IMG/VR virus record: IMGVR_UViG_3300009149_005470
Length of the DNA: 12,269 nucleotides
From: a virus
Direction: 5' to 3' (one strand)
How positions within the stretch are numbered: position 1 is the stretch's first letter; every line of letters starts with the position of its first letter. Of the stretch, positions 7,131 to 12,269 are shown one piece after another. The position numbers and the translations under genes were made by a program. The notes under the pieces are model-generated. The model did not search any database. It was given only the letters and a program-made list of their open reading frames with translations, and was not told where the DNA came from.

Positions 7131-10100
7131 CTAACGACTTGTTAATACCAAACCAGTCATATAAGCATTTAATAAATCTTTTGCTGGTGACATTTTTGGT
7201 TGTTGATATTCAGCTTTACCATTCTGAATTATTTGAGATATAATTTCTTTCTTTGAAATATGATCGTCTGATAATGGACCAAAAAATTCTGCTAATAAAT
7301 TTTTACAATCATATGAAATTAAAGCATAAGTATCCATTTCACCAAATCTTTGCCCACCCTCTTGTCTTTTTCCTGCTGTAGGTTGCATACTCTTTCCTGC
7401 TGTTCTTCCTGTAGAACGAGCATGAGCTTTTTCTTCACTAAGATGCTCTAATTTATTAATATACATATAACCAACAGGTACAGCATCTATAGTTTTAGTC
7501 CTATATTCAGGAATATTTAAATGATACCCTGTTTTTAAATCAAGCATTTTCAAAACTGTTTGAATGTTTTGATACGGTGGTGATTTAAATGGTGGTATTA
7601 CAATTGGAACAAATTTAATTTTAGTAACTTGTTCAACAAATTCTTTATATTTTTGTGGACCCATTTTTTCAAAATTGTTTAAAAACCTTTTACTTATTTG
7701 TTGTTTTTCACTACCATCTAATAATGTAAAAACTTTTCTAAATAATGGTAATATTTTTTCTTTATTTTTTAATTCTAAAACATTAATTGCAAGTTTCTTA
7801 GATATTAATCCTGTATATAATTCAAATAATTGACCAATATTTATACGACCAACTATACCAATAGGATTTACTATCATTTCAACTCTATCACCCCAAGGAG
7901 TTAATGGCATATTTTTTTCATCTTCAATTAAACCAATTGTTCCTTTTGCTCCAAATCTATTAGTAAGTTTATCACCCAAACCTATTTTTAAAGATTGTTC
8001 AATTTTAAATTTAACTAAAATTCCATCTATTCTTTTTCCTGATACAGAAAATTTATCAGTATCTGTTGTACCATATCTTTTCTTTGTTCTGTCAATTAAT
8101 TGTTTTAATTGTGGAAATTTTGTTTCATCTAAATTTGAATATACCTCAATATCTACTACTTTTCCACCAGGACTCTTTTTAATTAAATGTCCACCAGATA
8201 ATTCAATTGCATCATCTTCATCATCTACACCAAGAAGCTCTTCAATTTCACCAATACTTTTTCGTAACAAAGGTTGTCCTTTTTCCACAACAGTACCAAT
8301 ATCACAAATATAAATCAATCTATCTTTTTCTGAAATATACACTTCCTCGATGATTCCATGTAATGATGTTAATTTATCATTATCAACTAATGCACTACTT
8401 ATAACCTGACTATCTTCAAAATTATATCCTTTATACGGCATTACAGCAACACAAAGAGTTCTTCCTAATGAAATATTACCATTAGATATACAACTCCCCT
8501 CAGCAACAATCATATTTGATTTTACTACCTGACCCTTCTTAACTTTTGAATTAAATACGCTTAATGTATCTTTACCAGATCCAGATTTTAAATGTGTAGG
8601 AGTTATATCAATTATCTCTTTTTTACCAGTTGAACATCTAATAACAATATTATCTTGAGTTACTAATTCAATTTTACCAGGACAAGGTGATCGTTTAATA
8701 AAACTATCTGATAAAACATTTGTTAAAACTGATTCATACCCAGATTGAATTATTGGTGGTTCTGGATTATTTAATGGCACTACTTGTTTTTGTTGTGCTG
8801 ATAACATTATTACTCTAGCTCCATCATTATTTTCAATAAATGGAGTCATACAAGTTGTTGTTGATAATATTCCAACTCCTTCTTTATTAGATAACTCTTT
8901 TGGTAAAAATAAACCTCTTGCTGACGTAATATATGCATCTACAGTTAATTGTTGATTTATACCAATATTAGGTCCCTCTGGTGTATCCAATGGATCAATA
9001 TTTCCAAAATAACTTGAATGAACATTTCTTGCTTTATTTTGAATTGCTCTCTTATCTGGAATTCCTCCAATCTTTTTACCAACAGGAGATAGGCGTGTCA
9101 TTGTACCCATCTCTTCAACTGGATTTGCATACTCCATATTTGCAACAATTTCTAATTGATTAAATTCGCTTAGAGTTTTTGTTTTACTCATTTTAAACTC
9201 AGCATTTTCATTACCTGATAAAACTTTTTCTTTATAATCAGTATATGCTGCTAATATTTGAGATTGTGTTAAATGAACAATTGCTTCAGAACCTCTAATT
9301 CTTTGATTCGTTATATCATTTCTATCTTGTACTGTTCCTTCAATAACTTTAGTTGCCATGTAATGCATTATTTCTCTTAATTCAGAAGGAAGTTGTTTAT
9401 TTATAAGAATTTGTTTTGCAACAGGATCAACAATATTTTCTAACATTGAACTTATCAACCATGTTGAATTAACTCTACCTGTCATTTTGATTATTAATTT
9501 TGTAAAATAATCACCACTTCCAAATATTTCATTTACATTAAAAGTTCCAATTTTAGCATATATAAATGATTCTACAAATTCTTCCTTTAATTCTGTATTA
9601 ACATTAGTAAATCTAATATATTGATTCGGACCAATTTTAGAAGCAAACTTTTCATTCTTTTTTATAGGTTCATCAGTTATTGTATATGATATTCCATATT
9701 CTTTCATTATCGATTCAAAACCAAAACTATAAAATAATACAATTGAGAATGGTAGTTTATATGATCCCAAATATAATTCAAGATATTTTAATCTTTTAGT
9801 TCGCTTACTATATAATCTAAAAATTGAATAAGAACTTTCAAATTTTGACATATAAGCATTTGGAAATGTTATCGGACATAATACTATTTGATTTATTAAA
9901 CATTTCTTTTGACCATAAACTCTAAATGTACCAGATTTATGATCAATTTTAGGTATATCAATTTTAACTACATGTTCTCGATTTTTGGTATCTAATAATG
10001 TAACAATAACAGTTTGAATATCGGATGGTGTTAGATCTCCTCTATTTATTTCTTTGTCAACAATCTGTAGATTTTTAAATTTTAACGGAACATCTTTAGT

Positions 10101-11231
10101 TTGAAGTACTTTAAATGAATTTATGAAATCGTTTTTTAAATTCTTTTCAAAATCAACCTGTCTTTTTTGAAAAATATGTTCTGGCGATTTATTATCAACT
10201 GTTTTAGGAATATCATATAATTGTACAATAACATCTTCTGTAGTGCTTACTGTTTTTTGTGGTTCTAGTATTTGATCACCATATACTTTATCAACAGTTT
10301 TTAAAGCTTTGTCAATATTTTTAGGATGTATTTTTGAAACCATAGCAATTGATTTATCAACATTACCATTAGTACTATGTAATATTGAAGCTATTACTAG
10401 TTTATCAATTTCATCTTTTGTTATAGTTTTACTAACAGTTTTCTCAAAATAATTATCTGATTTACTAAGAAAATCTTTTACAGCTCCCTTAATTGGTTCT
10501 TTATTATCAGGTATTATTTTTGAATCTATATTTTTCATAACATATGTTGTTGCATCATCAACATCAGATTCAATTTCTTCTTCAGTATCAGTAATTTTAA
10601 TTGATTTTAAGATTTGAAAGATTCTTGGAAATTGGAATTGTCTATCTTTTATTAATAATCTATGTTGTGTATTAGATTCACCAACAACAGATAAAATCAT
10701 ATGATCAAATGTTAATTGTTCTCCTTCCTTAAACATTTTTAACAATGGAAATATTTTTCTGTTCATCAGTGTGTTTAATTCTTCAGTTGCTTTAACAGAA
10801 TATATTAATATTTTTTGATATTTTGGTAAATAATTAGTAAATGATCGTACTATTATATCTTTTAAAAGAAAACCAGCTCTCTGTCTATAACCAGTTACTT
10901 TATAAGTTTTATCAATCATTTTTAAATAATTAGAAATATCAAAAAAGAAATTTTTTCCGGGTGGTATTTTTTGTTGTGGATTGTAAGCATATAATCCATA
11001 AGTTCTAAATAATTTTCTTGTATCTGAATCTAATCTGGTTCTTGGTATAATTGTAGTAGGAATAACTACTATTCTATTATCTACTGGTCGTATTCCCAAT
11101 TTTGGATAATCATCAATTAATGAAGAGTTTTCAGAAAAATATAAAATCATAAATGGTTCACTATTTTTCTGTGGAAATCTTATACCATTAACTTTTTGAT
11201 TATATTGTCTTAATGATTTAAATTGGATCAT
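7131..11231 (-). CDS. rpoB: DNA-directed RNA polymerase beta subunit (RpoB) homolog, full length, 1366 aa, divergent, with about 300 extra residues in the N-terminal third
   Basis: It carries the conserved beta blocks in bacterial order. NQRIRGSEA matches [61 protein letters not shown] matches the Rif-region RRISALGPGGL...[41 protein letters not shown] matches [38 protein letters not shown] matches [37 protein letters not shown] matches [13 protein letters not shown] near the C-terminus. The start overlaps the HNH gene stop (TAATG). Confidence 0.9.
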   Translation of the reverse strand: [1366 protein letters not shown]

Positions 11232-12139: not shown

Positions 12140-12269
12140 TATTTCTTCTCCGAAATTAAAGTTCCTGTTACTATTTGTTCTAAAATACTCGGAGGTAAAT
12201 CATGTTCAGAAATTAAACCAGTTTTAATAGCTGCCCCGACATTTTCGAAGGCAAGTCCCTGCACAAAGC
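12139..12269 (-). CDS. C-terminal 42 codons of a probable RNA polymerase beta-prime (RpoC-like) subunit; 5' part lies beyond the window end
   Basis: The open frame ends at TAA, which overlaps the HNH ATG (TAATG). The translation FVQGLAFENVGAAIKTGLISEHDLPPSILEQIVTGTLISEKK resembles the beta-prime C-terminal block (TEAAVAGK.D.L.GLKENVIVGRLIPAG). The segment is short, so confidence is moderate. Confidence 0.45.
   Translation of the reverse strand, partial: FVQGLAFENVGAAIKTGLISEHDLPPSILEQIVTGTLISEKK

Follow-up and report, generated by a model that had tools for sequence, protein, structure and literature searches.

The current analysis concerns a 12,269-nt stretch of viral DNA (IMG/VR record IMGVR_UViG_3300009149_005470, hereafter the window), which encodes the end of a beta-prime-like subunit and an entire beta-like subunit of a multisubunit RNA polymerase (RNAP), separated by an open reading frame (ORF) for a putative 302-aa endonuclease. 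All sizeable ORFs, as judged from the ORF list and its translations, lie on the minus strand in the 5' to 3' order of the beta-prime end, the 302-aa ORF, beta (1366 aa), genes for 196-aa and 89-aa proteins, an AT-rich gap of 403 bp, and ORFs of 192, 332, 838 and 335 aa (Table 1). Both junctions of the 302-aa ORF consist of a one-base stop/start overlap, TAATG. Spacing between the genes is tight, with some overlaps, so that co-transcription and translational coupling are probable. An earlier reading made from the sequence alone had described this order and its overlaps, and the ORF layout bears it out, including the claim that the acidic 196-aa protein and the 89-aa protein, rather than beta-prime, follow beta; neither the ORFs nor Pfam reveal an rpoC-like gene 3' of beta within the window. 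Rfam and tRNA scans of the window gave no matches, scans for sigma-70 promoters and terminators returned counts not above those of shuffled sequence, and a whole-window megablast against isolated phages found no match.

The polymerase subunits and the phage that encodes them

The upstream gene is cut by the window edge, and the last 42 aa of its ORF, FVQGLAFENVGAAIKTGLISEHDLPPSILEQIVTGTLISEKK, have no Pfam match by themselves. By tblastn, they are 58.5% identical (E 8e-9) to residues 964-1004 of the beta-prime protein of a related contig (L004). An exact look-up returned no sequence on record for the beta protein; the exact record of the 302-aa protein led to three assemblies sharing the beta-prime/302-aa/beta junction, from ENA (L006), Logan and JGI. 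Samples containing this phage are ENA ERZ27249621, SRR5210834 and JGI 3300024262. L006, an ENA contig of 25,006 bp that is 99.95% identical to the window across 11 kb, contains the full beta-prime gene (6987..10001), encoding 1004 aa with Rpb1_2 and Rpb1_5 domains (Pfam), in which NADFDGD lies at residue 367 and the trigger-loop motif MRTFHTGGAV spans residues 749-758. When compared with PDB chains, the beta-prime profile scores much higher against those of bacteria than against archaeal, eukaryotic or phage AR9 chains. The gene order in L006 is a 481-aa gene, a 145-aa gene, beta-prime, the 302-aa ORF, beta, and the 196-aa and 89-aa genes, and genes upstream of these match Phage_base_V (weakly), Amidase_2 (weakly) and the tail-fibre family phrog_1491. 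The presence of phage genes beside the polymerase, together with a beta-prime bearing NADFDGD, identifies the source as a tailed phage with a genuine beta-prime. The sequence-only reading, which had proposed a beta-prime-like C-terminus and a virus-encoded polymerase, and had pointed to NADFDGD and to the sequence beyond the window edge as the places to look, is upheld on each of these points: the C-terminus is the real end of the 1004-aa protein, the motif is present, and the extended contig shows baseplate, tail-fibre and amidase genes rather than a ribosomal-protein or rpoBC locus. It had also suggested looking for alpha, omega and sigma genes; no homologue of these, or of ribosomal proteins, was detected within 21 kb of this phage's sequence.

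The beta protein has Pfam matches to Rpb2_3, Rpb2_6 (E 1.5e-41) and Rpb2_7, all from residue ~700 on. A profile of this protein and its relatives recovers PDB chains of bacterial beta at E ~1e-100, and its scores are 342 bits for bacterial, 138 for archaeal, 126 for phage AR9 and ~110 for eukaryotic chains. It is conceivable that such a locus is an ordinary cellular rpoBC region, either bacterial or organellar, that was rearranged or mis-assembled, as the best PDB and database matches of both subunits are indeed bacterial. However, beta shares only ~30% identity with bacterial beta over 45% of its length (at most 32% over the core), beta-prime lies 5' of beta with no flanking ribosomal-protein genes, baseplate, tail-fibre, amidase and orphan genes surround the locus, and the arrangement recurs in 12 related viral contigs as well as in the three independent assemblies. 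A cellular origin of this kind is accordingly given next to no credence.

The relatives were drawn from IMG/VR together with NCBI, ENA, JGI and Logan assemblies, and 12 related loci were compared. The IMG/VR relatives are five contigs whose betas show 29-55% identity over full length, and some relatives are found on contigs of 269-304 kb. In every relative (L001-L005, L010, L011, L013-L018) as well as in the cultured Cobetia phage Carin-5, beta-prime is located 5' of beta on the same strand. Genes for the 196-aa and ~89-aa proteins lie 3' of beta in 11 of the 12 relatives, with one to three intervening ORFs in four; the exception is L005, the most distant relative, for which the search yielded no homologue of the 196-aa protein. 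Most relatives also encode proteins of ~483 aa and ~145-165 aa 5' of beta-prime.

A lineage with these features has been described previously. In 2020, 97 metagenomic tailed-phage contigs with both subunits were reported as mReC, for multisubunit-RNA-polymerase-encoding (multimeric RNAP-encoding) Caudovirales (Weinheimer & Aylward 2020, Nat Commun 11:4506, PMC7481178). The supplement to that paper lists 3300014204_Ga0172381_10000022, a contig of 179,636 bp on which beta has 1371 aa and beta-prime 1010 aa, and which also gave a T4-like capsid match; this is the contig of our L004, with which it agrees in metagenome id, length and gene sizes. Other listed contigs have equal gene sizes, and for one of them, Ga0172381_10002439, a single gene number falls between beta-prime and beta (PMC7481178). 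Full-length identity between the betas of the window and L004 is 54%, which, on the evidence of sequence, makes the window a new member of this known, but biochemically uncharacterised lineage; the window phage lies outside the published dataset. Members of mReC carry both subunits on one viral contig in a form recognisable by cellular RNAP profiles, alongside tailed-phage hallmark genes; their RNAPs group together, apart from the homologues of cells and giant viruses, and a T4-type major capsid protein (VOG11186/PF07068) and a TerL of VOG01069 are further markers of the lineage. In the present phage, both subunits lie on one contig and are recognised by such profiles (Rpb2_3/6/7 and Rpb1_2/5), and L006 supplies the hallmark genes. 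The passages of PMC7481178 that were searched hold no discussion of a junction endonuclease, a beta N-terminal module or conserved small flanking genes.

The polymerase might instead belong to the phiKZ/AR9 type of jumbo phages (reviewed in PMC7598289), either as a virion or a non-virion enzyme, and simply happen to be unsplit. The phiKZ and AR9 enzymes are phage polymerases of beta/beta-prime type that are not known to include alpha and omega homologues. They consist of four or five polypeptides, beta and beta-prime each being split, and are far more divergent. Parts of both beta and beta-prime match PHROG families that are annotated as beta subunits of jumbo phages, and the size of the largest related contigs is also in keeping with jumbo phages. 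However, beta has an identity of only 20-23% (tblastn) to the betas of phiKZ-like phages, PCH45 and similar phages, its profile scores far higher against bacterial beta than against that of AR9, each subunit is encoded by a single ORF (1366 and 1004 aa), and the lineage agrees with the published mReC contigs. Such an affiliation is scarcely more credible than a cellular origin.

The interpretation that we consider very probable is that the window derives from a large tailed phage, uncultured and AT-rich, that belongs to the mReC lineage and carries its own bacterial-type RNAP module, with a homing endonuclease gene lying between beta-prime and beta. The beta/beta-prime pair makes up a catalytically complete core within a conserved module, and the enzyme presumably transcribes part of the phage genome independently of the host polymerase. 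The lack of a detected alpha, omega or sigma homologue in the 21 kb suggests that assembly and promoter recognition likely proceed via phage-specific proteins, the candidates for which include the N-terminal beta module and the small conserved neighbours. Several points weigh against this interpretation: membership in mReC is drawn from sequence similarity to a listed member rather than from a tree; the 25-kb contig of this phage has no capsid or terminase gene; when the phage polymerase would act and what it would transcribe are matters of inference; and the roles suggested for the 196-aa and 89-aa proteins and the beta N-terminal module are deduced only from synteny, with the structural model of the 196-aa protein having no informative structural neighbour. 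As for novelty, the sequence-only reading had considered the arrangement to be unusual, whereas it was already published in 2020 as an mReC trait and also exists in Carin-5. The striking gene order is thus an established trait of a published lineage rather than a new system, and the earlier interpretation is partly supported: it was correct as to the kind of system, though not as to its novelty.

The N-terminal module of beta and a frame switch in a sister clade

The sequence-only reading had also stressed a full-length beta of 1366 aa. The protein is indeed unsplit, unlike those of phiKZ and AR9. Residues 125-168 of E. coli RpoB, the GTFxxNG region, align to positions 422-466 of a profile of eight phage betas, and the remainder is collinear; phage beta therefore has ~300 extra residues at its N-terminus. 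The protein is thus better described as a core of ~1050 aa preceded by an add-on of ~310 aa. The N-terminal module is kept in all relatives and is missing from the Carin-5 beta. It has no match in Pfam, PDB or PHROG, and no homologue was detected outside this phage group. A profile search with the module alone returned many proteins of 311-324 aa on long contigs.

Such short proteins have a counterpart in the polymerase loci of four divergent relatives (L013, L015, L017 and L018), in which the zero frame of beta stops after ~313-324 codons and the remaining ~1060 codons, 58% identical to those of the window, lie in the -1 frame. In all four, the switch occurs at a run of nine adenines (A9) in identical codon phase (XXA AAA AAA AAG/C; A_AAA_AAA_AAG/C), and the site is also where the proteins of at least 14 clusters (311-324 aa) end. 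L002 has an identical A9 run, but in frame, and the window has no A9 run and encodes beta as a plain ORF, the equivalent site being located at ~10296-10320 on the minus strand. These sequences mark residue ~310 as a module boundary in beta, coincident with the A9 frame switch. The pattern suggests that the sister clade employs programmed -1 frameshifting or transcriptional slippage, which would yield both the free module and a fusion of module and beta, although a homopolymer assembly error may also be the source of the switch.

Endonuclease and intein insertions in the polymerase genes

The 302-aa ORF is absent from the beta-prime/beta junction in all 12 relatives. The closest of these, L010, has the empty site gaaaaaataATGattcaattt with TAATG intact (the endonuclease-free sequence around GAAAAAATAATGATTCAATTT), and direct junctions occur in 11 other loci. 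In the window, the junction is occupied and reads gaagaaataATG[908 nt]...cataATGatccaattt. Comparison of the two junctions places the ORF exactly within the ancestral TAATG overlap, which it recreates on both sides, so that all three genes stay expressible. Presence and absence at a precise site is therefore seen between genomes that are otherwise collinear, and sequence comparison argues that the endonuclease is a lineage-specific insertion rather than a part of the polymerase gene architecture, contrary to the sequence-only reading, which had counted it as an element of the arrangement.

The 302-aa protein belongs to a large family, with 1797 cluster representatives recovered by an exhaustive HMMER search. 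In an alignment of 107 homologues, D246, H247, S250, N269, N278 and K281 are invariant, and the predicted structure maps D246, H247, N269, N278 and K281 to a strand (243-247), a second strand (270-274) and a helix (275-281), matching the pattern of the HNH (beta-beta-alpha-metal) nucleases, in which a His general base closes strand 1, an Asn lies in strand 2 and an Asn/His in the helix after it. NUMOD3 is found in 17 of the 107 scanned members. No Pfam or NCBIfam HNH model matches the 302-aa protein or any of these homologues; relatives with a different, cysteine-rich HNH tail show a weak IscB-HNH match at most, and every annotated homologue in T4-like and Campylobacter phages is labelled hypothetical. 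Hence, the HNH-type endonuclease that the sequence-only reading had placed between the subunits finds its support in invariant residues and not in any curated model. A second copy of the family, 296 aa long and 31% identical, lies between the amidase gene and the tail-fibre-like gene of L006 (2987-3877). From the sequence evidence, we conclude that the 302-aa ORF encodes a divergent, free-standing homing endonuclease of HNH type with predicted cleavage activity. Its HNH fold assignment is moderately supported and its mobility strongly supported.

Alternatively, the ORF could encode a domesticated component or regulator of the polymerase, such as a DNA-binding specificity factor, rather than a selfish gene. 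Its TAATG overlaps couple it translationally to both polymerase genes, the junction including the ORF is intact in all three independent assemblies, it possesses zinc-ribbon-like and helical DNA-binding-like modules, and its GC content equals that of its neighbours, which is unlike a recent import. All of this would be compatible with domestication, but the ORF is missing at this position from every relative, and its homologues reside at unrelated sites, including the interior of beta-prime and the vicinity of tail genes. The family is also huge and modular, its NUMOD3 repeats are typical of homing endonucleases, and the nuclease residues are invariant. Consequently, domestication is improbable, albeit less so than either of the alternative origins considered for the polymerase itself.

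The homing endonuclease is an ordinary, though unannotated, type of selfish endonuclease. Phages are known to carry free-standing homing endonucleases between essential genes or splitting them, such as the mob and seg genes of T4 and MobE, which splits nrdA in Aeromonas phage Aeh1. Like these, the 302-aa ORF is free-standing rather than housed in an intron or intein, resides where two genes of a conserved, essential locus meet, varies in presence among relatives and has paralogues elsewhere in the genome. Like MobE, its homologues cut a gene, in this case beta-prime in L002 and L010, into two expressed pieces. Unlike them, its nuclease domain is a divergent HNH variant unmatched by Pfam, and its target is an RNAP operon. 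By analogy with T4 mob and seg, the endonuclease most likely spreads in mixed infections: alleles lacking it would be cleaved close to the insertion site, and repair would then copy the gene into them.

The homologue that splits beta-prime in L002 is a 333-aa ORF (33% identity, E 5e-17 to the window ORF), and that in L010 is a 347-aa ORF. In both, the split point falls ~25 residues past the trigger-loop motif MRTFHTGGAV, leaving fragments of ~780 and ~228 aa. The trigger-loop tip of beta-prime was observed to be a mobile-element hot spot, with insertions in L002 (8299-9300), L010 (4182-5225) and L011 (1479-3296), two of them being ORFs of the HNH family (L002 and L010) and one a DUF7487/Mom ORF (L011). 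We considered whether the beta-prime halves in these three loci might be fractured genes with split inteins, and rejected the idea, as the halves abut and contain no intein-sized extra sequence. The beta-prime of L005 (5636-9883) carries an in-frame LAGLIDADG intein (aa ~780-1170) in RTFH|TGG, ending ...VNGMWTHN. In L011, a relative of 304 kb, gyrase B also contains an intein (13080-15983; Intein_splicing Pfam match), a further sign of a heavy mobile-element load in this phage group. Selfish endonucleases evidently have hot spots in the polymerase genes, and these, at the trigger-loop tip and the beta-prime/beta junction, amount to natural "split here and still works" sites.

Neighbouring genes and comparison with known systems

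The features of the window are listed in Table 1, together with the A9 positions of the sister clade. Of the proteins encoded alongside the polymerase, that of 196 aa has ten homologues, all lacking Pfam domains; its predicted structure (predicted local distance difference test, pLDDT, 80) shows a disordered acidic tail followed by a bundle made up entirely of helices. Its synteny makes it a candidate polymerase accessory factor. The 89-aa homologues that follow the 196-aa gene in relatives are 37-41% identical, and the protein has no Pfam, PHROG or NCBIfam match. Profile searches with the 481-aa and 145-aa proteins found no PDB match. The 192-aa and 332-aa genes are 44-53% identical in L001, L002 and L004 with their order kept (tblastn), and neither protein has a Pfam, PHROG or PDB sequence match. 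The 481-, 145-, 332- and 192-aa proteins are linked to the polymerase solely by synteny.

Table 1. Coordinates of the features of the window and of the A9 run in sister-clade beta genes
Feature	Contig	Position	Strand	Remarks
Beta-prime gene, 3' end	window	12139..12269 (in frame 12139..12267)	-	gene cut by window edge; last 42 codons present
Putative 302-aa free-standing homing endonuclease gene	window	11231..12139	-	TAATG at both ends
Predicted beta-beta-alpha-metal (HNH-type) nuclease core, endonuclease aa 243-281	window	11297..11413	-	YHLDHKLSI...NLEIIPSIKNLQK
Whole beta ORF, 1366 aa	window	7131..11231	-	Pfam Rpb2 domains
Beta N-terminal add-on module, ~aa 1-312	window	10296..11231	-	conserved in all relatives; no outside homologue detected
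Bacterial-type beta core, ~aa 313-1366	window	7131..10295	-	Pfam and PDB profile search
196-aa gene, acidic N-terminal tail	window	6530..7120	-	3' of beta
89-aa gene	window	6264..6533	-	4-nt overlap with 196-aa gene
AT-rich motif CTATATATATTTATT	window	6227..6241	-	directly past stop of 89-aa gene
Long hairpin	window	5935..6029	-	26-nt perfect inverted repeat, 43-nt loop, then T-rich tract
192-aa gene	window	5282..5860	-	synteny kept
332-aa gene (320 aa as called in L006)	window	4305..5303	-	synteny kept
838-aa vault-domain protein gene	window	1723-4239	-	PF11978 match
Sister-clade beta	L013	8001-12121		A9 at gene nt 924
Sister-clade beta	L015	8001-12133		A9 at gene nt 942
Sister-clade beta	L017 and L018	5001-9106		A9 at gene nt 918

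Two further observations concern the distal proteins. The 332-aa protein has invariant cysteines, a Ser/Pro-rich tail and an acidic-aromatic tip, FSFEDLKF, which recalls the tails of single-stranded-DNA-binding proteins. In the 838-aa protein, a long coiled-coil tail comes after the shoulder domain of the major vault protein (PF11978, E 5.9e-20) and a weakly matching Vault_3 repeat. L010 encodes a version of 834 aa, and L001-L005 have none at this position.

The intergenic regions contain conserved elements as well. The AT-rich motif 3' of the 89-aa gene, CTAYATATATTWATT, has an invariant core in ten aligned intergenic regions, and it recurs 5' of the first gene of the module (483 aa) in L013 (2110-2124) and L014. 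The single occurrence in the window is not above chance. It is regarded as a candidate for a phage promoter or for a signal marking the boundary of the polymerase module. Within the 403-bp gap after the module lies a long hairpin without an Rfam match. Hairpins occupy the equivalent place in L010 and L011, where the arm sequences differ and the pairing is kept, and the element is a candidate terminator or regulatory element. Repeated CAAGA(C/T)TAAAGACT-like units are found 5' of the 481-aa gene (L006 4745-4850) and resemble the arms of the window hairpin; together, the units and the hairpin arms might represent a phage-specific intergenic repeat.

Among the multisubunit RNAPs of phages, those of mReC are nearest to the cellular enzymes, and they have been used in arguments for an ancient viral origin of the enzyme. 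Literature searches found no description of mReC subunit composition, promoters or regulation. The locus described here offers a clean and compact example of such a polymerase, with a 1004-aa beta-prime and a beta core of ~1050 aa, and the conserved module around the core subunits nominates candidate accessory subunits. Taking these features together, it is possible, though we hold the idea tentatively and would sooner bet against it, that the ~310-aa module is a previously unrecognised polymerase subunit fused to a compact beta core, for which a programmed -1 ribosomal frameshift or transcriptional slippage in the sister clade would yield both the free module and the fusion. In combination with the 196-aa and 89-aa proteins, it could replace alpha, omega and sigma, and the repeated invasion of these genes by endonucleases and an intein may show how a fragmentation like that of jumbo-phage polymerases arises. 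As far as we found, the N-terminal module, the A9 frameshift site and the trigger-loop insertion hot spot are not described in the literature.

When compared with known systems, the phage shares with the rpoB-rpoC genes of E. coli (b3987/b3988) a bacterial-type catalytic core, NADFDGD and the trigger-loop MRTFHTGG being present in the phage. The two loci differ in several respects. Bacterial rplKAJL-rpoBC clusters place rpoB before rpoC with ribosomal-protein genes upstream; the phage has the opposite gene order and rplKAJL is not found upstream. Its beta-prime is 400 aa shorter than that of E. coli, its beta has the extra N-terminal module, and no alpha, omega or sigma homologue was detected near its polymerase genes. 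Cobetia phage Carin-5 (PV155638), like the window, has an unsplit beta-prime (1083 aa) 5' of beta (927 aa) on the same strand. However, the identity between the two is ~28% and covers only the C-terminal 45% of beta, and Carin-5 has an annotated sigma-like gene upstream, whereas none was detected in the 21 kb of the window phage. Yersinia phage YerA41 and Salmonella phage Arash give beta matches similar to those of Carin-5. The likeness extends furthest with the mReC phages (PMC7481178), which encode an unsplit beta (~1365-1377 aa) and beta-prime (~1008-1010 aa) adjacent to each other on metagenomic tailed-phage contigs, with NADFDG present and with subunits that, as in the window phage, are recognised by models of the cellular RNAP.

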